In this document: in pieces, positions 3,973 to 63,967 of the stretch
Numbering within the stretch: the stretch's first letter is position 1
How the letters are laid out: every line of letters begins with the position of its first letter
Source of the DNA: a virus
Virus record (IMG/VR): IMGVR_UViG_3300038386_000109
DNA: 64,000 nt
Direction: 5' to 3' (one strand)
The notes under the pieces: model-generated
Seen by the model: the letters and a program-made list of their open reading frames with translations, nothing else
Databases searched by the model: none
What the model was told of the DNA's origin: nothing
Position numbers and translations under genes: made by a program

Positions 3973-6027
3973 CTACCTATCGATGACGAGCGCTGGCAAT
4001 GCATGATTATTGCCGCTCTTGCGCTCACCGACCCCCGACTGCGCCCCTGGCGGGGCGTGACCTGTTTTCGTTTCCTTCGTACCCTTAGGTAGCGCCGACG
4101 TCGGCCCACCAGTCGCCTCTTTTATCATGTTGTCGTGCGCCCGGGTAACCGCTTTCGTGACCTGCTGCGCAACGGCATGAGGGTCCGACATGCCGTGCAC
4201 GTCGATCGTCAGGTGTTGCTTGGTCGATGAATTTTTAATCGTGTTGTTCCAGGTGTTCTGCACACCCGGGGGTATGTCGGTCCTGAAGCCATGCAGGTCG
4301 AAATAGCGCGAGCCGTCGTGCAGGAACTTCGCCTTCTCCTTATCGATCAGCGGCGCAACGATAGGGGGAGGTGACACTGTCGCCGCTACCGGTCCGCCGA
4401 GGCCTGGACCCATCGGCGTCGCACGCGCCTCGCCGCCGTAAAATTGGCGGTAGGCGCCAGACGAGTACGTGCTCCAATCCCGATAGCCACCCGCCTCGCG
4501 CGCCATCTGCAAAGCAACACGGGCGTTGGTTTTCGGGTCATAGAGGTCGCTGTACGACTTAAGACCGAAGCGCTTCAAGCGTTCCGGCCCCATCCGACCG
4601 AGCATGTTGATCTGCCAGAGACCGAAACTGTAGTCCCGGCCGTACGGATTAAGCGCCGACGGCCGACCGCGAGATTCCGCCATCCCTATCGCCGCGAGCG
4701 TTCGCGCCTCAGCGTCGGAAGCGCCAGCCTGCTTCATCAGCTGGAAGAGCCCGGCGGTATTGAACCGCTCCTTGCTGCCAGCGCCAGGATCAGCGCCGCC
4801 CATCAGCTTGTTCAAGCCGGCGCGCACGCGAGAGAACACGCCCCCGGCGCGGCCCCGTAGAGTGTCGCTGTAGGCTCCGGGGTCTACAGCAGCCCCACCG
4901 CCGCCAACCGCACCAGCGCCGCCCCCAGCGGCTCCTGCGGGGGTTTCTCCGCCGCCTTCCCCTGTAGGGGCGCTGCCAGTGTTGGCTTCGGCCGGCGTCG
5001 CCCCGAAGAGCTTCATGAACGAAGCGAATGCGAGGGCCAGCGCGCCAATCGCGCCGATCGCGGTACCGAGCCGCCGTCCGATCAGCAAGAGCAGCAGCAG
5101 CTCGATGGCACCCTTCCATCCAACCGTGTTGACGGTAGCTTTGCTGACGTTGACCGCGAAATTCTTAAAACCAGTGGCCATCTCCTTCAGCTGCGATAGC
5201 CACTGGTCTCTCGTTTCGATCAGGTGAATGAGACCGTCGGCCAGAGCCATTAACGCCTTGCCGACGTCGACCAGAAAATCCCTGATCTTTACAGAGTTTG
5301 CATCGATCAGCGCCGTGAGCCTCTCGAGCTTCTCGCCAGTCGGACCGGCGAGCCGTTCGGCAACCGAGTAGAGGATGGTGTCGACCGACTGGACGAATTC
5401 GTTTTTCGATTCGGTGAGCTTCGCGCTTTTCTCACCGAAGTTCGGGTCCTTGGGGTCTATCCCGTGCAGACCCTCCCGCTGCTCGAACTTCTTGACCTCC
5501 TCCTCGAAATTTTTGCGGGTGGCCGTGTACACAGCCATCTCGGACACATGGTAGTGCTCCGCCATTATCGAGACGACGGTGCCGTACGGGTACTTCTTCT
5601 CCAGCGCCTTGATGAGCGCGACTAAGTTCTGCGCATCAGTGTTCGTCTCTGGATGCTCGACGCCGTTCTCGCGGAGCACACGCGCGGCGCCGCCCGGCGT
5701 GTTTTCGAGCTGGCGGAGCTGTTGGCTGAAGCTCTCCAGCGCCTGGGTCATTACCTCGGCTTGCGTGCCGACGGCTTCAGCAGCGCCGCCGAGTGCCCTT
5801 ATCTGCCCGACAGTGGAATGTGTGCGCTGCGCCTGCCAGTAGAGATGGTCCAGGCTGCCGACGATGGTCTCGAAGACCTGCGAGCGCGCCGCGGCGCCGG
5901 CAACGAACGCCAGCGAAAGCTCGGTGATGCGCTTGCCCACATCCTCGATGTGGTCGAGCATCTTCCGCTTCGACTGTTCGTCGATCTTCCAGCTGAGGCC
6001 GACAAAGAATTCGGTGATCGGATTCAC
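3973..6027 (-). CDS. Tape measure-like protein 2 with lytic transglycosylase (SLT/lysozyme-like) domain
   Basis: 684 aa, helical N-half; AAIGMAESRGRPSALNPYGRDYSFGLWQINM...DLYDPKTNARVA...WSTY lysozyme-like motif; GTG start overlapping upstream stop. Confidence 0.75.
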   Translation of the reverse strand: MNPITEFFVGLSWKIDEQSKRKMLDHIEDVGKRITELSLAFVAGAAARSQVFETIVGSLDHLYWQAQRTHSTVGQIRALGGAAEAVGTQAEVMTQALESFSQQLRQLENTPGGAARVLRENGVEHPETNTDAQNLVALIKALEKKYPYGTVVSIMAEHYHVSEMAVYTATRKNFEEEVKKFEQREGLHGIDPKDPNFGEKSAKLTESKNEFVQSVDTILYSVAERLAGPTGEKLERLTALIDANSVKIRDFLVDVGKALMALADGLIHLIETRDQWLSQLKEMATGFKNFAVNVSKATVNTVGWKGAIELLLLLLIGRRLGTAIGAIGALALAFASFMKLFGATPAEANTGSAPTGEGGGETPAGAAGGGAGAVGGGGAAVDPGAYSDTLRGRAGGVFSRVRAGLNKLMGGADPGAGSKERFNTAGLFQLMKQAGASDAEARTLAAIGMAESRGRPSALNPYGRDYSFGLWQINMLGRMGPERLKRFGLKSYSDLYDPKTNARVALQMAREAGGYRDWSTYSSGAYRQFYGGEARATPMGPGLGGPVAATVSPPPIVAPLIDKEKAKFLHDGSRYFDLHGFRTDIPPGVQNTWNNTIKNSSTKQHLTIDVHGMSDPHAVAQQVTKAVTRAHDNMIKEATGGPTSALPKGTKETKTGHAPPGAQSGVGERKSGNNHALPALVIDR

Positions 6028-26846: not shown

Positions 26847-27026
26847 TCAGGAACCGGGCAAGCCGTAAATTCTTTCGCGCTCAGCCTTCTGTCTGGCCTC
26901 ACGCCGTTTTCGCGCCTCTTCCTTAAACTCGTCGTTCTGTTGCGAGATATAATTCGAGAGGCGATAGCCGGTCTCCTCGCTAGTAGACCGTCGGCGGCGA
27001 TCCTCAAGGCGCTTGGCGAAGCTCAT
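26847..27026 (-). CDS. Hypothetical 59-aa protein (below ORF-track cutoff)
   Basis: Hand translation MSFAKRLEDRRRRSTSEETGYRLSNYISQQNDEFKEEARKRREARQKAERERIYGLPGS; ATGA overlap with upstream gene. Confidence 0.5.
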   Translation of the reverse strand: MSFAKRLEDRRRRSTSEETGYRLSNYISQQNDEFKEEARKRREARQKAERERIYGLPGS

Positions 27027-27232
27027 CGCCCGTGATGCCTTCCACCACCGCTCAGATGTTCCGTCTTCTCGCCCGGCTTGGCAACTATCTGATAGCCGGA
27101 GGCATCGAGGTCTTCCTGCAGCCGCTTGGATATTGCCGGCAGGTACGGCCGCACCTCACCTTCGAAAAAACTCGACTGCTCGCGGACCATTTGATCGATG
27201 GATGATTGAATAATGTCGTCGACAGTTCGCAT
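27023..27232 (-). CDS. Hypothetical protein
   Basis: 69 aa, starts just after the pentamer mini-array. Confidence 0.5.
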   Translation of the reverse strand: MRTVDDIIQSSIDQMVREQSSFFEGEVRPYLPAISKRLQEDLDASGYQIVAKPGEKTEHLSGGGRHHGR

Positions 27233-27237
27233 CGGAT

Positions 27238-27308
27238 TATCCTCGCCTCGCCTTGCCTGCGCCTTGCGCAGCCGAGCCCGACCCAGCCATGCAGTGGACA
27301 GCCATACC
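27238..27308 (-). repeat. Orphan GGY-NN pentamer mini-array (putative guide ncRNA)
   Basis: Minus strand reads GGTAT GGCTG TCCAC TGCAT GGCTG GGTCG GGCTC GGCTG CGCAA GGCGC(A) GGCAA GGCGA GGCGA GGATA: 14 units, one atypical, one 1-nt insertion. Confidence 0.65.
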
Positions 27309-30353: not shown

Positions 30354-30658
30354 TGAAGATCGTCGACCCCAAAGACATAGACTTCCTGCCACCGGAGACT
30401 TTGGCCACTTACCCGCTAATTGGCCAGCTTCCAGACGGTCGGTATTGCGGCATCCATCGCCTGCTGTACCACTGGACCATGCATGTGGACCTGGATGAAT
30501 TCGGGTATGCTGACAAATATTGCTTCGCCACTCAGGCCCTCGCGGTCGCCGCACTGATTAACTGGAATGGCGAGGGTGATCCTGACGGATGGCACAGACA
30601 CCTGAAAACAGGGCGGCGACGCAATCTCGAAACAGGCGAGGAGTGGATACAGTGGTAA
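30353..30658 (+). CDS. Hypothetical protein
   Basis: 101 aa; last gene of the + cassette. Confidence 0.6.
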   Translation: MKIVDPKDIDFLPPETLATYPLIGQLPDGRYCGIHRLLYHWTMHVDLDEFGYADKYCFATQALAVAALINWNGEGDPDGWHRHLKTGRRRNLETGEEWIQW

Positions 30659-31494
30659 CTACAGCCGCTTAACGATCCACATAACCACCGCGATCACGAC
30701 CACGATCGCGGTGAGCGCAAGGACATTTCCCGGCCAGCCCGGTGTAGCCATCTCAAAATGCCCTCGTCCATTTTCCCCCGATTGGTCGGCAGGTCCATCG
30801 GGATTTGTCGGGATCACCCGAAACCCCAAAAAAACCAGCCCAGAATTAAACCGACCGACGCAATAACGAGGGTGCCGCAAAGGAATATTGTAGCACCCTT
30901 ACTCATTCTTCGAAGCGGTAGGTCCACGTTCCCCCCGAATCTTTCACGATTTGGTCGCGCCTGACATACCCCTGTCCCACAGCAACGGCCGCATAAATCC
31001 CCCAGCCCTTCACAGTGACACGCCAGAGACCAAGACTAGTCTTCTCGCCCTTGTAGAGATGCACCAGCTCGCCGGTGCGGATGTAGCGGTGCAGCGCAAG
31101 GTCGACGAGGCCTCGGATCATTCTGACTTCCGCCGCTTCATCGCGTACTCGTAGGAGCTGACAGCGATGGCCGCGTACCTCTTTGTCAGCTGCTTCGCGG
31201 TCTCTATCGCGACATGGTGAGGCACCTGCGAATCGGAAGCGCGAGCTAGAATCTTGCCCCTACGATCAACCTCGCAGACATAGAAGAGGCGCGGTTCGCG
31301 GCTCACTTCGACTTCTTTTCCTGCTGCCGGCCGGTGACCGGCTTCTGGATGGCATTCTTAGGCATGCTGCCCAACACCTCGCTGACGATGGCGTCGCGCT
31401 GCATCTTCTGGCTTTCGTTCAGCTCGCGGTGGATCGGATCACCATCAAAATGCTCAGGTCCCAGCTCGCCGAGTTTGTGTTTATAGGGTTTCAT
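30659..31494 (-). CDS. Four small hypothetical ORFs (30659-30880, 30903-31121, 31118-31306, 31303-31494)
   Basis: Mostly overlapping start/stop codons; downstream of the portal gene and the second mini-array. Confidence 0.45.
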
Positions 31495-31546
31495 CCGTGC
31501 CTTGCCTCGCCGTGCCCAGCCGCGCCACGCACCGCAGAGCCGTGCC
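31492..31546 (-). repeat. Orphan GGY-NN pentamer mini-array (putative guide ncRNA)
   Basis: Minus strand GGCAC GGCTC TGCGG TGCGT GGCGC GGCTG GGCAC GGCGA GGCAA GGCAC GGATG: 11 perfectly phased units. Confidence 0.75.
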
Positions 31547-31551
31547 GCTGG

Positions 31552-34500
31552 CTAAAAATGGCGATCATTTCGGCCCTCCGCAACCTTTTTTGGCGAGCCT
31601 CGCTCGCCGTTATTGTCATACAGTGTCCAGCGCTTCAGTCGCGGGATGATGTCATCGAAATTCTTCTCGTTACCGTACGAGCCAAGGATGTATTCTGGCG
31701 GCACAAACCGGCCCGTCCCCTTGTCTGATACCCCGCCTTTGGCAAACCGGCCCATAGCGCGGTCCGCAGCGATTTCCGGCGTGCTGTGCATGTAAATCCC
31801 GTGTACGTCGTGCGTATCCTGAAACTGATCGATGCGCCGCAGCGCGCTGGTGCCCGACTTCATGGTCTGGTCGAAGGCGACGTTCAGACCCTTCTGCTTG
31901 GCGATCTGCGCAGCCATGTCGGCGATGTGCGAGCTTTCCTCGTGCACTAGGCCAGCATTCCAGCCCTCGTACTCCGGGAGCTGCTGCTTGAACGCATCCG
32001 AATCGACCACGATCGTATTCTTGCGCGACACGGGGCCGTCGGCGCCGGTGATGAACGACTTGCCGGAGCCGCCGCGGCCGCCGAGGACGGTCATCGTCGG
32101 CCGCTGCCCTGGCGCTGGCGTCGCGCCCTGCACCGCCTCAGGCGTGAACAGCTTCCGCAGGATTTCCTTGTGCAGTTGGGCGCGCTCCGGCGTGTACGTG
32201 CCGTCGTCGAGGGTGTGGCCACCGTCGTTGACGTGCGCGTTGGTCGGCACAGCCTGCTTCATCATCTCGCGGATTTTCGCGATTTGATCCGTCGTCCCGT
32301 ACTTTCCATTTATCCGCTTGGCGGCGTCGTCGATCTGCCCCGGGTGAGGCGCGCCGCCGTTCCTCGCTAGGAGGTCTTGGGCGGGTCCTTTTTCCCAGAC
32401 GCGGGAACTGACGTCTGGCGTCCACCCGTACTTTTGGGCGAACTGGTCTTCGACGGCTGCGATTTTGGGGCCGAGGTTGGCGAGTAGCGTGTCGGCGCTT
32501 CGTTCCACATCGGGTCCAGCCGATCGGATGGCTTGTAAATAATCCTCGGCATGGGGGGACTTGCTCCAATCGTTCGCCAGATAATCGCCCACGTAGTGAG
32601 CGCGCTGGGCCTCAATTTGCTCTGGAAGGCTGTCGGATTCAAGACCTTCGATCGCCGAATGCACAGCCGCGCCGAACTGATCGTTGGGCATCGATCCGGT
32701 ATTCAAGACGCGCCAGCCCTGCTGGGTCGGGACGAGCGCGTACTCCAGTCCGCTAACGGCGCCGAGCGCCTGATCGATGGCTGCCGCCTCGGCCTCTGAT
32801 GGGCTGCGACCCATCCTGAAGTCGAGCATATTGCTGTCCTTCGGATCGATGTCGACGAACCGCGTCGAGGCGTGCGGATCGAGGTGCTCGCTAATCAGCT
32901 TGGGCTGTTTGTAACCCCTGCCGATATCGGAGAGCAGGCCATTCTGTTCGGCGTACTGGCGCGCCGCCGTACGACTGAGGACCTGACCCTTGTCGTTCTT
33001 GAAAACGTAGTTCGCATCGTTCTGCGCGCCGCTCGCCAGAAAAGCCTTCTGCTCCTCCGGTCCGAGGGCCGCCAGTGCGTCTTTGTGGGTGACCCCGTGT
33101 CCGGTGTCCGTCGGGAACACAACGCCCTTGGCGGTCTTCAGACCGGGAATGAGATAGGCATGGGACGGCGGGGGTTCAGGCCGGTGCCATGCGGCAGCGT
33201 CTTGACGCAGCAGGATGCCCCGAATCGCCTCGCTGGCGTTGATCTTCGCCTTATCATCGTCGCCGAGCCGACCAAGATTAACCTGTGTCTGGGCGCCTGG
33301 ATTGACGCGACCTTGGAACACGCCGGCCGATGAGAACGTCGGGCCCGTGCGCAAGCCGAGGGTCTGCGCGATGACGTCGTGACCCTTCTCGTCGCTGAGG
33401 ACTTTCTCAATCGCCTGCTGGTACTCGCGGCGCTGCTCGAGCGGAGCGTCGTGGAACTGCGGCATGTTCCGCGTGGTCTTGCCGGGCGCACTCTCCCACG
33501 AGAGCTGGGCGGGCTGCCGCTCACGCGGGTCGGTCGGCTGATACTCGACGTGCGGGTGGTGCAGCGCCGGAGCCTGCGCGACCTTGCGGGCTACTCCTGG
33601 TCCGCTGGTGAATCGCCCGTGTTGCTCGCGGGGGTGCTGCTGCTCGTTCCACTGCTGGAAGAGGTCGAGGGCGAGCGGAACTGTTCCGGCAATTCCTCCT
33701 CGTCCTCCGCCGTCGGCTGATAATCCGGGTCGCCCCAGTTCACCGCGATGTAATTCGTGCGCGTCAGCGGTATGCCGTACGTCACCATGAACTCCACCAC
33801 TGGGTCGGTGCCATGAAGGTGGGCTAATTCCTCGGCTGAGAATGCGGCGCTGGGCTTCGTCTCGGGTGATTTTTCCACTGTCGGCGTCATCCCAGTGCCC
33901 CTTTATTTCCTTGCGAAGGTCGTCGCCTTTGTCCTCGGCTTTGAATAGACCGCGCTGCGCTTCCCAGGTGACCGACTGCATCTCACGTGGCAGGACGCCA
34001 CGCTCCTGAGCTGCGCGCCGGTATCCCTCTGCATATAATCCGTAGAGGCCTTTCGAGCCAGTGGCAGCATCCTTCGCGCCGGTGAGGCCGAGACCATCCT
34101 TAACCTCGGGATCGGCGCCACTCCACGGCATCAGCGCAGCCGCGCCAATAGCATGGGTGTCGATAGTCACGTCCCCACGCTTCGACTGCGGCGCGATGAT
34201 GTTGTTGTAGAAATTCCTAACCTTGTGATTTCCGCCAAGGTTCTTGGAAATATTCTCGGGCGACGGATCGTCCACGATCGACACCGCCTTGGCAATCTCG
34301 CGGAACGACTTCCACGCGGCGCGCGAATCGCGGCCGTCCTTGTTCTTGACCGAGCCGAGGACAGCACCCTCAGGCGACATTTCCGGGAACGAGCGGGTGT
34401 TTTCGGTCTCGTCCCAGAACCTGATCCAGTGTGCGCGCTCAAGCGGCTTCTGAATATCGGCGAGGGTTTTGCCCTCGAAACCCTGCATCATCTTGCGGAC

Positions 34501-43207: not shown

Positions 43208-46200
43208 TCCCCCCTCGGAGCGGATTCGGTAAGAGCGGCATCAATCATGTCTGGCCAAACATCTACCAAAACATCCCGCCCCGTAAGATAACCCTCGTCG
43301 GGGTGGAATTGCGGCATCTGAGAATCGCCTGCGGCTAGCATCCCCTCTGTCGGCTCTCGCATTGCCTGGATAGCCACGCGGGCGTGCTTCAGTGAGGCTT
43401 TACGTCGGCTCTCTTGAGCAAGAGTGTCCCCTATTTTGCTGTACCAGCCCCACGCGGCAGGTGCCAACGCCTTTGCGACCCGCACAACCATTTCGTTGAC
43501 ATCGACGATATGGCCCTCACTCATCCCCGTTTCCTTTCCGCAGTTCCCGTATCTATCTCAAACACAAGAGAGCCCACGTCAGATCGCTTAAGCTTTAGCC
43601 CGCGACATTTGATGATCGTTAGCGTTTCGGGCAGCCCGGCTTCGATCCCGAATGAAGCTTTATCCATTCCATTCCTGATTTCGACAGCCAAGTCGTTGCC
43701 ACTGACTTCAATCTCGATCATCCCGTTTCCTTTCCGCAGTGTGGAGAGGCTAAGCTCGCCGAACCATCGCGAGCCCAACAATGGCTAGAGAATTGTCGTA
43801 AGCCCGGCGGGCGCGACCATGTTCGACTAGTAGCTCAAAGGTTTTCATCTCCTCCGGGTCGAGCTGGCCCACGCAGAGATTCCATCCTCGGAAGTCGCTT
43901 TCGACATCGTTTAGCTCCTCTTCCGAAAGCTCTTTCATTTGCTGGCGTGTTCTCATCCCCTCACTCTCCATCCGTGCGGGAGAGGGGGCGCCGCAGCCCA
44001 TGAATAGCATGCCGAGCGACGGCCTGGATATTATCGCTCGTGCCACCGGGCGGCCAGGCTGCCGGGCTCGGTAGGCCATCAAGCATGTGCCGAACCATCG
44101 CTTCTGCTTGTGTGGCGGTGAGCAGGTTAGTGCCCACCGGCGTAGCGTCTACCTCGGGGGAATAGTTCGGGCGCTTATAGTTGATCCCGTTGTCGGGGTC
44201 GAAATCTGGCGGCAATCGCCAAGCCAAGAAGCGATCAACCATATGCTTGATTTGGGCGTCCGTGAACATCATAGCCTCCGCTTGCATCGCGCGAATCTTC
44301 CAAGGGCAAGGGAAATTGCCCCACTCGTCCCCGACCGCGTCGTGACAGATGCCCTCGACAGCAAGCATCCTCGCTTCATCCCGCTCAGCCTGTAGCTGAG
44401 CGATGCGGGCGTTGGCATCGACAAGTTCGTTGCGAAGATTAGCTGCAATGTAAGCATGGCCAGTTATTGGCATCTCTCACCTCCCGTTTCCGCTCGTCAC
44501 CCGTGCGTAATCCGTGCGGCAAGCCGCGTTCGTGAGGGCCGACCTCCGCCTTGGTAAGGGAGAGGTCGAGAGTTGCCCCTGCGGAGTCCTTGACGTACAG
44601 CACATCTCACTCCTCCCCTGTCTTGCGGGCCGGATCGCTGTCGGGGTGGCGGGAGAAGTGGGCGGCGGCATCATCAAAATGCCAAATGCCGAGGCAGCCG
44701 CGAAGGCGCTCAAGCGTGCCTTCCTCTCCCCACGATTGCCGTGCTTTTGCTAGGACGCGCACTATCGCCTCAGCCGATTTCGCGCGGGCACGCAGATCAG
44801 CGCTAATTCGGCAAGCAGACTCGAACCGAGCCTTGTAATCATCCCGCTCTTCTCGCGCCTTGTCCCGCTCGCGCTCTAGTTCGACGATGTGCTTCCGAAG
44901 CTCGGATAAGCAATGCCAGCATGTTCCAGCGCTACAAATGTCCGGCGAGTTATCAAGTCCGATGGGGCATTTAACGAACGCCTCTAGTTCGACGATGCGA
45001 GCGCGGGCTTCAGCCTGAGAAAAATAATCTCGCGAATGACGGCAGTTTATAGCGGCCTCTTTTGACAAGCATGGAATTGCTGCTGACCCCGACACTCGTA
45101 TTCGATCACAAAATTCACAGAACCGGCTCACTCCCCGCCTCCCTGTGTCTCTGAGGCGGCGCGGGAGCGATCAGGCAATGCTTTGCGAAGTACGTCGATG
45201 ACGCCTTCCATATCCCATCCCATTCCGAATGCGATGACCGCATTTTCCGCCGCTTCCTCCAGGCCAGATCGCGCGGGGTGCGTGTAGAGAGGTTCGACAA
45301 TTGCCCCCTCAAAAAAAGGCGGCCCGTCAGTAGTAATTTCCCAGCGATTACCCGGCCAAGCAGGGTTTCGATACAACCACGCGCGCGGCGCCTCTCGCGC
45401 GTCGGATGGTGGGGCAACCGCACGCATGGCTTTGTAGATCGCCGCGACCTCTTCGGTATCGAGAGAGACGCGACCATTCCGAGTGGCGTACTTGGCCATT
45501 TCCGGGTACGGAATCATCGGGCTTGCCTCGATGCCCGCCTGCTTCATCTCTTCGGTCGGCTCATCGGATGGTGGGCGCTCTTCAGCCTCAGCGTAGTGAA
45601 TACATTCCTCCGCTTCGTGTGTGTTAGTGCAACGATCTCCTCTATAACCACAGTACATACATGGCCATATCTCGGCGTCGGATGGTGCGCCCCCGGAACG
45701 GTGCTCCACCTTCCGTTCATCAGATGCATGGCGATCGACAAAATCCTGATCGTATGCGCGCCGCCATGTGTCGGGGCGGCCGGGGATATTGTTGTCGGAC
45801 GGCCCGGGCTTTGTCGGGTCGGTCATGACAGCACCGGCTCAAACCAAGTCGCGGGATATCCGGCAGCCTCGTCGATCTCGGCGACGTGAACGGCTACTAG
45901 GCCAAGTTTGTCAGCGACCTCAGGCATGGCAGCTTGCAGCAATAGAGGCAGTTCGCGGGTCACCGTGATGGTGTAGGTCTTGCCGTACTCCGGCAGCTTC
46001 AGAACGTAAGCCATCTTCAGTAACGCCGCCAACCTAGCCTCTTCCGCCTCTTCGAGCTCGAGCCTGCAGCGGACCTTCATACCGACTTCCAGGCGCTTGG
46101 GCTTAGCCCCCCTCAGTCTCCACCGGCGCGACATATACGGCAGGCACTCGCTGGCCATCAGGCTGCACTTCCTTGAGGCAGACGACAAAATCATCCAAAT

Positions 46201-52022: not shown

Positions 52023-52391
52023 ATGGCCTCCAGCAAATTCCTCATGGCCGAGCGTCGCGACTACGGCCAACCTGAACCAGCCCGCGACCCAAATCCAGTC
52101 CACCACGCCCTAGCGCTGATCGAGCGCATGGACCTCTCAGACCTCGAGACAGTCGCCTCCGCCCTGCTCGACCGCATGATCGACCTACACGACCAAGCCG
52201 AAGAGGAAAAAACAAAACCCAGCTACGACAACCTGCTGCTGATGCTCGACGATGTCTCGGCAGTCGCGCAGAATCTATACCTCGTCGCACCACCCGCAGC
52301 AAAAGAGAAAGCCCGCGAGGACAAAATCCGCGGCGCCCGCACAGTGTGCGATCAGCTTCTGCGAACAAAACAGCCGAAACGGCGTCGCTAA
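52023..52391 (+). CDS. Hypothetical early protein
   Basis: Start MASSKF after GACCTTGGGA leader. Confidence 0.55.
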   Translation: MASSKFLMAERRDYGQPEPARDPNPVHHALALIERMDLSDLETVASALLDRMIDLHDQAEEEKTKPSYDNLLLMLDDVSAVAQNLYLVAPPAAKEKAREDKIRGARTVCDQLLRTKQPKRRR

Positions 52392-52458
52392 GGCGCTGTC
52401 ACCTGGGGCTGGCCGTCCCGGGTCTGAAGATGGCAGGCCAAACTTGAAAGGTAGCAAA

Positions 52459-53694
52459 ATGTTAAACGCGCAAGCACAGCAGGCCTCGATGCCCGTACGC
52501 CCGTACGCAGTCGACACCTCCGCTGGATCGCTCGACAGCACGGTATCGAACCAGTGGTTCAGCCGTCCTGCCGACGAAAAATACGCCGACCTTAACGCGC
52601 TCTTCAACGCGAAAAAGGCGGCGTACGATGCCGCCTGGGAGACGCGCGTCAGCACACGGGGGTTTTGCTTTGAAGCTCCGATCCCGGAGACCAAGGAAGA
52701 CTTCAAGAAGCTGACGGTGGGCGTGCCCAACGTACGGACGGCCGGCGCCGATGTTAGCCGGACGGTCGAAGTTGCCCCGACGCACTGGGCGTTCGGTCAG
52801 CTCTGTCAGCTGGCGAAGGCACCTGCCTCGTATCTGCGGGAATTACCCTCGCAGATGGTCACCGAGCAGCTGACCTACCGCATGCGGTTCGCCCGTGAAG
52901 TCGAGGAGGTGAAACTCTACGGCGGAACGCAGCAGCTCTTCGCGGCCACGGGCCCGACATACGGGCGCATCCCCGACCACGAAGTCGTTCACGCGCTGCG
53001 GCAGATCGCCGGCAGCGGCCTCGGCGACAACCCGCGCTTCCACTGGAAGACACCGGGTCGACTGAATTGGTCGAACGGCACCTACGACCCAGAGGACATG
53101 GGCGACAAGAACGACCGGACGTTCTACGGCAGCGACCGCGACTTGTTCGTGTTCCTGGTCGACGACCGCCGGCCGATCGTCGTGGGCAAGACCCGCGACG
53201 GGCGTGACGACCTGCTCTTCCGCGGGTTCTACCTCCAGAACTCAGAAGTCGGCTCGCGCGCACTGAAGGTGCGATCGTTCTACCTCCGCGGCGTTTGCAT
53301 GAACCGCAATCTGTGGGGATGCGAAGGCTTCGAAGAGCTGACCATCCGGCACACCGCACTAGCGCCGGAGCGCTGGCTCGATGAGTGCGTCCCCGCGCTC
53401 GAAAGCTACTCGGCCGCAAGCGACCGCAAGCTTCTCGAATCGGTCGAGAAGGCGAAGGCCGCGAAGCTAGTCGAAAGCGACGACGACGAGCTAGCTTTTC
53501 TGAAGCGCTGCGAATTCTCGAAGGCAGCCAGCAAAAAAATCGTCGAGGTTCATGAGCGCGAGGAAGGCGCGCACATGAGGACTGCCTGGGACTTTGCCCA
53601 AGGCATTACCGCCTACGCGCGGAACGCCCTGAACACCGACGATCGCCTCCAAGTCGAAGCGGTGGCCGGCAAAATCCTCAATAAGGTCGCGTAA
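52459..53694 (+). CDS. DUF932-family protein
   Basis: VSNQWFSRPADE...THWAFGQL...YGRIPD..VV...SDRDLFVFLVD...NSEVG..L...RGVCMNRNLWG. Confidence 0.8.
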   Translation: MLNAQAQQASMPVRPYAVDTSAGSLDSTVSNQWFSRPADEKYADLNALFNAKKAAYDAAWETRVSTRGFCFEAPIPETKEDFKKLTVGVPNVRTAGADVSRTVEVAPTHWAFGQLCQLAKAPASYLRELPSQMVTEQLTYRMRFAREVEEVKLYGGTQQLFAATGPTYGRIPDHEVVHALRQIAGSGLGDNPRFHWKTPGRLNWSNGTYDPEDMGDKNDRTFYGSDRDLFVFLVDDRRPIVVGKTRDGRDDLLFRGFYLQNSEVGSRALKVRSFYLRGVCMNRNLWGCEGFEELTIRHTALAPERWLDECVPALESYSAASDRKLLESVEKAKAAKLVESDDDELAFLKRCEFSKAASKKIVEVHEREEGAHMRTAWDFAQGITAYARNALNTDDRLQVEAVAGKILNKVA

Positions 53695-63041: not shown

Positions 63042-63297
63042 GGCATGGCTAAGATAGGCATAGCAAGGCCATGCTTGGCGCTGCGGGGCGAAGCTTGGCG
63101 TGGTTAAGCAAGGAGCGGCGCGGTTCGGCTCGGCTCAGCCCGGCGGGGCCATGCAGGGCGGGGCAAGGTCCGGGTAAGGCGGTGCGAGGCGGTGCGAGGC
63201 GAGGAGCGGTGAGGTGATGCGGAGCAAAAGCAAGGCAGGCACGGCAGGGCCAGGCCGGGCAAGGCGATGCGGGGCAAGGTATAGCGTGGCGAGGTGG
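63042..63297 (+). repeat. Long GGY-NN pentamer array (~51 units), putative guide-RNA locus
   Basis: Phased (G/A/T)G(C/T/A)-NN units from GGCAT GGCTA to GGCGA GGTGG with two 1-nt insertions (63172, 63228) and one 4-nt unit (63234-63237); no credible ORF. Confidence 0.85.
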
Positions 63298-63361: not shown

Positions 63362-63967
63362 ATGAAGATCGAAGTTAAAATAGAGGGCGTAACGCCCCTG
63401 ATATTCAACCGATTCACCGACAAAGCAGCAGAGGATTCTACCTCAGGCAATCGAGGTGCTCAAGGTGGCGACAGAGGTACTCCGCTAGAAATCGCGCACA
63501 GCAAGCTATACTTCGATGCGTACAACAAAAAGATCGTGGTACCTCAACCAAATTTGCTGCGGTGCTTAGTCGAAGGCGGACGATTTCATAAAATCGGCAA
63601 GACCCAGATCACGACGGAGCGTAAATCAATTCTGTACTCCTGCCTCGACATTGAGGGTGCGGACATCGAACTGATTCATAAACAACCATGGAAGGTCGAT
63701 ACGCGCGCTGTACGCATTCCCGCAACAGGCGGACGCATCCTTGCCCACCGCCCCATGTTCGACGACTGGACGCTCGAATTTATCGTCGACCTTGATACAT
63801 CGATTATTGGGGTCAAGCTTCTAAGAATGATCGTCGACGACGCTGGCAAACGGATCGGGTTAGGAGACTTCCGACCTGCTACAAAGGGGCCGTTTGGTAA
63901 GTTCTGTGTGACGCTTTGGCAGGAGATTCAAGAGCTTCCGTCAACGATGCAAATCGCTGCCGAGTAA
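63362..63967 (+). CDS. Standalone Cas7/RAMP-like protein (Vipr-like)
   Basis: IEVKIEGVTPL (RAMP beta1), IVVPQPNLLRCL (position of the P.IPGSSLKG motif), C-terminal Gly loop IGLGDFRPATKGPFGKFCV; no other cas genes; flanked by pentamer arrays. Confidence 0.75.
   Translation: MKIEVKIEGVTPLIFNRFTDKAAEDSTSGNRGAQGGDRGTPLEIAHSKLYFDAYNKKIVVPQPNLLRCLVEGGRFHKIGKTQITTERKSILYSCLDIEGADIELIHKQPWKVDTRAVRIPATGGRILAHRPMFDDWTLEFIVDLDTSIIGVKLLRMIVDDAGKRIGLGDFRPATKGPFGKFCVTLWQEIQELPSTMQIAAE

Follow-up and report, generated by a model that had tools for sequence, protein, structure and literature searches.

A vrRNA-type pentamer tract between the portal gene and a small open reading frame, 32 kb from the vipr gene, in a VIPR-encoding phage

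Introduction

The Viral Interference Programmable Repeat (VIPR) is a CRISPR-related DNA silencer, a type II example of which is found in Escherichia phage SUSP1 (10.64898/2026.04.26.720920, 10.64898/2026.04.26.720927). Its RNAs, the vrRNAs, carry 9-16 units, each consisting of a GGY trinucleotide and a variable dinucleotide (NN) and bound by one Vipr protomer; the NN bases read the DNA with every third base skipped, an arrangement known as the NNx code (10.64898/2026.04.26.720920). The third-base pocket in the SUSP1 Vipr complex sterically excludes purines (10.64898/2026.04.26.720927). Published surveys of VIPR loci were confined to windows of 20 kb around vipr (10.64898/2026.04.26.720920, 10.64898/2026.04.26.720927). 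Solo or orphan vrRNAs are known from F5 satellites and from VIPR-null SUSP1-like phages, and Lopez et al. (2026) define a solo vrRNA as a GGYNN array with a vrRNA tail, in a carrier that has neither vipr nor vap (10.64898/2026.10.15.759431). Both VIPR and solo vrRNAs have thus already been described, in preprints of 2026.

The locus considered here lies in a stretch of viral DNA of 64,000 nucleotides (IMG/VR record IMGVR_UViG_3300038386_000109), the whole of which is called the window below. An earlier note on this DNA had drawn attention to a run of phased pentamers directly after the stop codon of the portal gene, and had proposed that it was either a late-expressed guide cassette or one of a set of arrays that spread together with small cargo genes. 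We describe this tract, its immediate surroundings and the comparable arrays of related phages, and compare it with the known systems.

Results

Sequence and phasing of the tract

The tract covers 55 bases, at positions 31492-31546 of the minus strand, between the portal gene and an ORF of 63 amino acids (Table 1). Read 5' to 3' on this strand, units 1-5 are GGCAC GGCTC TGCGG TGCGT GGCGC and units 6-10 are GGCTG GGCAC GGCGA GGCAA GGCAC, followed by a terminal GGATG. The ten units comprise eight GGC and two TGC units and the terminal unit begins with GGA; strict GGY is found in just 8/11 units, and NGC-NN occupancy is 10/11. Phasing is perfect across the 55 nt, with zero slips. With this nuance, the 11 phased units reported in the earlier note are confirmed. 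The NN string given there (AC TC GG GT GC TG AC GA AA AC TG) is correct for the minus strand, as are the offset of 5 nt (CCAGC) from the portal TAG and the sharing of an ATG by the terminal GGATG; this start codon, at 31494-31492, opens the ORF at 31303-31494. The maximum NGC-NN occupancy was 8 in 30 dinucleotide-preserving shuffles of the 64-kb window, versus 10/11 in the tract, and the binomial expectation was 4.5e-5 such frames per window.

The secondary structure of the tract RNA was no better than that of shuffled sequences (z = +0.42) and no Rfam family was found at the locus, and a structured RNA was rejected on these grounds. A two-tetrad G-quadruplex was also considered and set aside; the G-C at unit positions 2-3 is near-invariant, and position 1 varies. 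A consensus scan of positions 30500-32500, which provides weak evidence, identified no promoter or terminator on the minus strand.

Table 1. Positions in the window of the pentamer arrays and of the genes and sites discussed in the text
Feature	Position	Strand	Basis or remarks
Mini-array #1	27238-27308	-	Ends GGCAA GGCGA GGCGA GGATA ATCCG ATG (ORF 27023-27232)
63-aa ORF (MKPYKHKLGELGPEHFDGDPI...)	31303-31494	-	Small ancestral gene after the portal gene
Terminal GGATG, in-phase GGA end unit	31492-31496	-	ATG is the start of the next ORF
Ten in-phase vrRNA-type units	31497-31546	-	Sequence
CCAGC, from portal stop to unit 1	31547-31551	-	In phase; not a GGY/HGC unit
Polyvalent portal gene, 1991 aa	31552-37527	-	Pfam; TAG stop at 31554-31552
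Own copy of the L001 site	31772-31803	+	15/22; zeta-kinase part of the portal gene
Main vrRNA array, ~50 units, directly upstream of vipr	63042-63297	+	One-base register slips, internal GGAGC units
vipr gene, 201 aa, RAMP-type protein presumably binding the repeats	63362-63967	+	phmmer against PDB 36pp

The VIPR system of the phage

The ORF at 63362-63967 was matched to SUSP1 Vipr (PDB 36pp) by phmmer, on sequence alone, with E = 4.2e-9. Residues equivalent to R138, D177 and R179 of Vipr are retained, with F in place of W178; the GD(W/F)RP G-loop and the thumb arginine are both conserved. The same genome contains the main array beside vipr and a second short array, mini-array #1, the leader-type architecture of which is that of the 31492-31546 tract. 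In all three window arrays (3/3), the asymmetry of GGC versus GCC tracks the coding sense of the genes on either side. The tract itself lies 32 kb from vipr, in the leader of the 63-aa gene, and flanks neither vipr nor vap; at such a distance, it counts as a solo or dispersed module outside the canonical VIPR locus. These sequence features identify the tract as a vrRNA-type repeat belonging to the VIPR system of the phage itself.

Within the main array, in-phase GGAGC units at 63112-63116 and 63203-63207 (+) follow AGCAA and GGCGA units. They repeat the end signature of the clade (see below), and are therefore probably guide boundaries within this array. Elsewhere in the window, at 52372-52442 (+), there is a type II hammerhead ribozyme (Rfam RF02276, 44.7 bits versus a gathering score of 37), in a 67-nt gap from an ORF end at 52391 to an ATG at 52459, with no pentamer array nearby. 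Hammerhead-interspersed arrays are mentioned for other VIPR types in the VIPR paper (10.64898/2026.04.26.720920).

The junction between the portal gene and the 63-aa ORF

The portal gene encodes a polyprotein with portal, ART-like, DUF7178 and zeta-toxin-type kinase domains (Pfam: Phage_portal_3, E = 8e-87; DUF7178, 1e-29; Zeta_toxin, 6.5e-21; ART-PolyVal, 5e-5, which is below the cut-off). The 63-aa ORF had no Pfam or PHROG match, and its homologues immediately follow the portal gene in L001, L009 and L013. In the closest full-length relative (L001-L008), the portal protein is 52% identical and the 62-aa homologue is separated from the portal gene by a 71-aa ORF. The homologue in L009 is overlapped by the portal gene, and in L013, in which the small ORF is 60% identical, the spacer between the two consists of GGCATG only. 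No arrays were found in loci L001-L009, and the tract is absent from the portal/63-aa junction in the three relatives (L001, L009 and L013), from which it follows that the 57-nt array-bearing spacer is a lineage-specific insertion between two ancestral genes. By this comparison, the tract appears to have been inserted into a gene junction that was once tight. The suggestion that such arrays spread together with small cargo genes is not borne out at this locus, because the downstream 63-aa ORF is ancestral and is kept beside the portal gene in the three array-free relatives; the array did not, therefore, travel with it.

The 71-aa ORF of the sister phage, which is unannotated (L001:16126-16341), occupies exactly the place at which the window phage has its array, making the junction a variable slot. 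The GGCATG spacer at L013:150-180 resembles one pentamer unit, and could be either the seed or the remnant of an array. From the portal TAG through the 57-nt spacer into the 63-aa ORF, a single frame continues with no further stop (31492-31554, -), such that a portal/63-aa fusion protein would result if the TAG were read through; the shared frame, the sole pointer to such a fusion, has a prior chance of one in three.

An identical junction was recovered from four assemblies and two public runs of this phage. As all four recovered copies are identical, there is no variation at the locus for a comparison of NN with GGY positions. The two runs are of DNA, and no RNA was listed among the public runs carrying the junction. 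No close relatives were found in IMG/VR with the portal protein, and the phage records of GenBank yielded a single 230-nt match, outside the locus.

Unit composition and guide ends in the Vipr clade

Relatives of this Vipr with 55-73% identity in IMG/VR are flanked by long arrays. In 545 units of these arrays, GGY accounts for 72.5% and HGC (A/T/C-GC) for 21.3%, including TGC at 9.4%, and the two TGC units of the tract are thus normal for the clade. The NN dinucleotides are diverse across the arrays of the clade; none has the NN string of the tract, and no guide is shared between the tract and the arrays of the relatives.

The ends of the arrays are more uniform. In the last two units of the array runs of the relatives, NN is AA in 41% and GA in 15% of cases, versus 9% and 13% elsewhere, and 12 of the 23 array ends are followed by an in-phase GGA, a trinucleotide accounting for 0.7% of units inside arrays and 1.5% of background trinucleotides. 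Beyond the array end lies an A/T-rich stretch (e.g. GGATATTTTATTGATT), a GC hairpin or a start codon. The end of the tract, GGCGA GGCAA GGCAC with an in-phase GGA, fits this guide-end signature, its last three or four units corresponding to the near-constant guide-end pattern of the clade. It is followed by neither an AU-rich stretch nor a hairpin, and coding sequence begins at once. As the third-base pocket has no room for a purine, we infer that GGA would be the point at which the Vipr filament comes to an end.

Some of the A/T-rich spacers after GGA are near-identical (GGATATTTTATTGATT and GGATTTAAT(C/T)ACGTGAG). These reused spacers, at L029:4100-4120 and 4370-4390, L031:10660-10680 and L062:660-675, lie at guide boundaries and may be processing sites.

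Dispersed arrays in other VIPR-encoding phages

Five other long IMG/VR records with this Vipr clade (G002, G005, G007, G008 and G009) were scanned for dispersed arrays. Scattered solo arrays were present in three of the five, about 2.7-46 kb from vipr: two in G002 (73.8 kb, CheckV completeness 94%), at distances of 13 and 46 kb; five in G007 (52 kb, complete, with two vipr copies), at 2.7-20.6 kb; and three in G009 (50 kb, complete), at 10-27 kb. There were no dispersed arrays in G005 (56.7 kb, complete), and one doubtful match was obtained in G008 (60 kb, complete). The backbone of G002, the one tested, contains no detectable homologue of the portal or 63-aa protein, indicating that dispersal in this record is tied to the VIPR system and not to the backbone of the window phage. 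The two vipr copies of G007 (IMGVR_UViG_3300021475_000019), at ~429-1004 and 43523-44110, are each flanked by arrays.

The dispersed arrays fall into two classes, one in which the array is followed by a GC hairpin and another in which it is followed by GGA(T), 0-12 nt and a start codon. About half of the dispersed arrays of the relatives end in hairpins that have no gene start nearby. The start-codon class includes the arrays upstream of vipr in L029, L030 and L031, together with the dispersed arrays L058, L062 and L065 and both mini-arrays of the window. Arrays running straight into a start codon are normal in this Vipr clade.

Search for targets

The published threshold for a target is an NN match of at least 80% under the one-base-skip (NNx) rule. 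With this rule, no self-target was found in the window, the best score (15/22) being equal to the shuffled-guide null; the absence of self-targets is also a published property of vrRNAs (10.64898/2026.04.26.720920, 10.64898/2026.04.26.720927). An exact 10-unit NNx scan gave no matches in viral contigs and one in genome contigs, at L014:3709-3737 (+), in an Acidobacteriaceae MAG. This site is in frame, spells TSGVAWTEKT in a 465-aa ORF and is single-copy in that genome, but about one match is expected by chance, and it was rejected as a target. The single exact 10-unit match in metagenome contigs, in an acyl-CoA ligase gene, is out of frame and not wobble-aligned, and is at chance level, as are the nine matches, in ~6 unrelated genes, obtained in an 8-unit scan of viral contigs.

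Among relatives, the highest-scoring match (17/22, 77%) is below the threshold. It lies at L001:15890-15921, where six consecutive perfect units, wobble-aligned, spell VHATPE in the kinase domain of the sister-phage portal protein. The probability of such a match was 0.001-0.007 within the sister gene alone and ~0.03 over all scanned DNA, and its 10-unit version was not significant. Among the kinase (zeta)-bearing homologues, VHATPE at this site was found in the P0002 type only. The phage's own copy of the site (Table 1) is 220-250 nt upstream of the array. This sister-phage match is a weak lead, not a finding. The gapped-target search with the NN string for which the earlier note had called thus returned no natural target with at least 80% NN in the scanned DNA.

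No match of the other window guides in relatives survived multiple testing. The best match of the mini-array #1 guide, at L032:3197-3225 (-), was 16/20 (P ~0.02 before multiple-test correction); it was found in the unrelated phage G002, ~130 nt upstream of one of its dispersed arrays.

Discussion

The tract as a proposed dispersed guide module

We lean, with limited confidence, towards the reading that the tract is a dispersed single-guide vrRNA module, co-transcribed with the late genes, loaded with Vipr and used as a guide. Given its sense orientation and the lack of a separate promoter or terminator, it would be transcribed together with the late portal operon. Vipr protomers would then bind, one per unit, along the 10 GGC/TGC units, the filament would end at the in-phase GGA, and the protected RNA would act as a guide reading DNA by the NNx code, probably directed against a competing related phage. 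With the start codon contained in the end unit and the Shine-Dalgarno-like purines in the last units, loading or processing by Vipr would also affect how the 63-aa gene is translated.

Several findings argue for this reading. The phasing greatly exceeds chance expectation, the genome itself encodes Vipr, the make-up of the units (8 GGC + 2 TGC) agrees with that of the 545 units of the relatives, the tract has the guide-end signature of the clade, in which arrays leading into start codons are normal, the corresponding junction of three relatives has no such tract, and there are dispersed arrays in G002 (2), G007 (5) and G009 (3). The length of the tract, 10-11 units, is within the published range of 9-16 (10.64898/2026.04.26.720920). 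As for published vrRNAs, there is no self-target in the window, and the best non-self match, in the sister phage, exceeds the self copy (17/22 versus 15/22). Other findings argue against it: the tract has no separate 3' tail, whereas type II vrRNAs have a pseudoknot tail and most of the relatives' dispersed arrays a GC hairpin, no target reached 80%, and the exact 10-unit matches were all at chance level. Moreover, should the last four units form a constant end motif, only ~6 units would be left to specify a target, which is short. With respect to the late-expressed guide cassette of the earlier note, assignment to a guide-RNA system is supported by the encoded vipr, the clade-type units, the end signature and the similar arrays elsewhere; late expression is suggested by the position and sense orientation of the tract in the portal operon.

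A more ambitious picture, which we consider quite unlikely, would have guide modules scattered genome-wide in this Vipr clade, either hairpin-ended or fused to start codons, with the leader copies possibly linking Vipr occupancy to the translation or processing of genes, and possibly adjoining genes whose sister-phage allele they target; the gene in question here would be that of the portal, with its kinase domain 220 nt upstream of the tract (17/22 in the sister phage, 15/22 in the phage itself). If guides do lie beside the gene targeted in a sister phage, this would suggest that new guides are made or placed locally, in a primitive analogue of spacer acquisition.

Alternative explanations

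The tract may also be a cis-acting Vipr-binding leader rather than a guide, its NN positions carrying no targeting information. Vipr would coat the repeat in the late mRNA, and would either block or time the translation of the 63-aa gene or cut the operon there. It would resemble the binding sites of TRAP (trp RNA-binding attenuation protein) or CsrA in overlapping a Shine-Dalgarno sequence. The array ends in the start codon, its last units provide the only Shine-Dalgarno-like purines, and the insertion replaced a tightly coupled or overlapping junction, all of which a leader would explain, as it would the small number of units that look variable (only ~6). The same array-to-start-codon layout is found upstream of vipr itself in three relatives, where it would give autoregulation, and upstream of other genes (L058, L062, L065 and mini-array #1 of the window). 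However, the published activity of Vipr is DNA silencing via a vrRNA, with no mRNA regulation reported, the arrays upstream of vipr sit where published type II loci carry an upstream vrRNA, and the hairpin-ended half of the relatives' dispersed arrays has no gene start nearby. We regard a leader without guide function as unlikely; leader and guide roles do not exclude each other.

Equally, the tract might be a non-functional or decaying vrRNA copy, arising from recombination or replication slippage and tolerated as a spacer with a Shine-Dalgarno-like sequence. Its shortness, its lack of a tail, its restriction to one lineage and the fruitless target search are consistent with such an origin, as is the presence of just GGCATG, like a single unit, in the same spot in the nearest relative (L013). 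Against this origin, all ten units are GGY/HGC (10/10), a quality equal to or above that of bona fide arrays, the complete end signature is kept, and phasing is perfect over 55 nt. Similar dispersed arrays also occur in other VIPR-encoding records, at least one of which has an unrelated backbone. We therefore consider an inert copy improbable.

Chance or compositional periodicity, or a DNA-level site unrelated to VIPR (a pac site, an origin or protein-binding iterons), would suit a strand that is GC-rich and G-rich and a phasing that exists on both strands because GC is palindromic, but is extremely unlikely given the expectation of 4.5e-5 per window, the recurrence of the same grammar and end motif beside the Vipr gene here and in relatives, and a GGC-versus-GCC asymmetry that, in each of the three window arrays, agrees with the sense strand of the neighbouring genes.

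Comparison with known systems

A TRAP/CsrA-type binding platform with a sponge RNA was dropped as a main explanation, given the Vipr gene and the literature. TRAP sites consist of 11 G/UAG triplets with spacers of 2-3 nt. The tract resembles them in its eleven triplet-plus-spacer units, which are phased at 5 nt and overlap the start of translation, and in that one protein subunit per unit would occlude the Shine-Dalgarno sequence and the ATG. The triplets are GGC/TGC, not GAG/UAG, and the likeness is one of mode of action only. As Vipr is present and identical repeats lie beside its gene, the tract is explained without TRAP.

With VIPR vrRNAs, the tract shares tandem units of 5 nt, in which the trinucleotide is fixed and the dinucleotide varies, and the presence in its phage of a Vipr gene, the RNA-contact residues of which are conserved in the G-loop and thumb. 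Unlike published VIPR vrRNAs, the tract is 32 kb from vipr, has a relaxed first base (TGC) and no pseudoknot or hairpin tail, lies within a late structural operon, is fused to a start codon and has no natural target reaching 80% NN. The staggered or tail-less arrays of other VIPR types, in so far as the legend to fig. S18 describes them, have guides delimited within continuous repeat tracts and not by a structured tail (10.64898/2026.04.26.720920), a feature that the tract shares. The main array of this phage behaves like those arrays, which, unlike the tract, flank vipr.

Like solo vrRNAs, the tract stands without adjacent vipr or vap genes, and, as for orphan vrRNAs, its weak lead is a wobble-aligned non-self match that is better than the self match. 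The carriers of solo vrRNAs lack vipr, and these RNAs are found at a former VIPR locus or in satellites, with a conserved 40-nt tail. The carrier of the tract, by contrast, is VIPR-positive, and the tract is far from the locus and has no tail. It would therefore work like a solo vrRNA, while falling outside the definition of Lopez et al., since its carrier has vipr and it lacks the tail.

Those parts of the VIPR literature that were accessible contain no mention of guide modules far from vipr in VIPR-positive phages, of leader-type fusion to start codons or of an in-phase GGA end unit; the latter two features are derived here from the relatives. The basic picture of VIPR is unchanged by dispersed arrays. 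Nevertheless, the tract and twelve comparable arrays, from four VIPR-positive phage sequences, indicate that additional guide modules can be carried by a VIPR-positive phage within structural operons, at distances of tens of kilobases from the locus. Any inventory of guides or prediction of targets drawn from the VIPR locus alone would consequently be incomplete, and the temporal class of expression may differ between guides. The in-phase GGA end unit and the start-codon fusion provide testable rules for where the filament stops and for the control of translation by Vipr.
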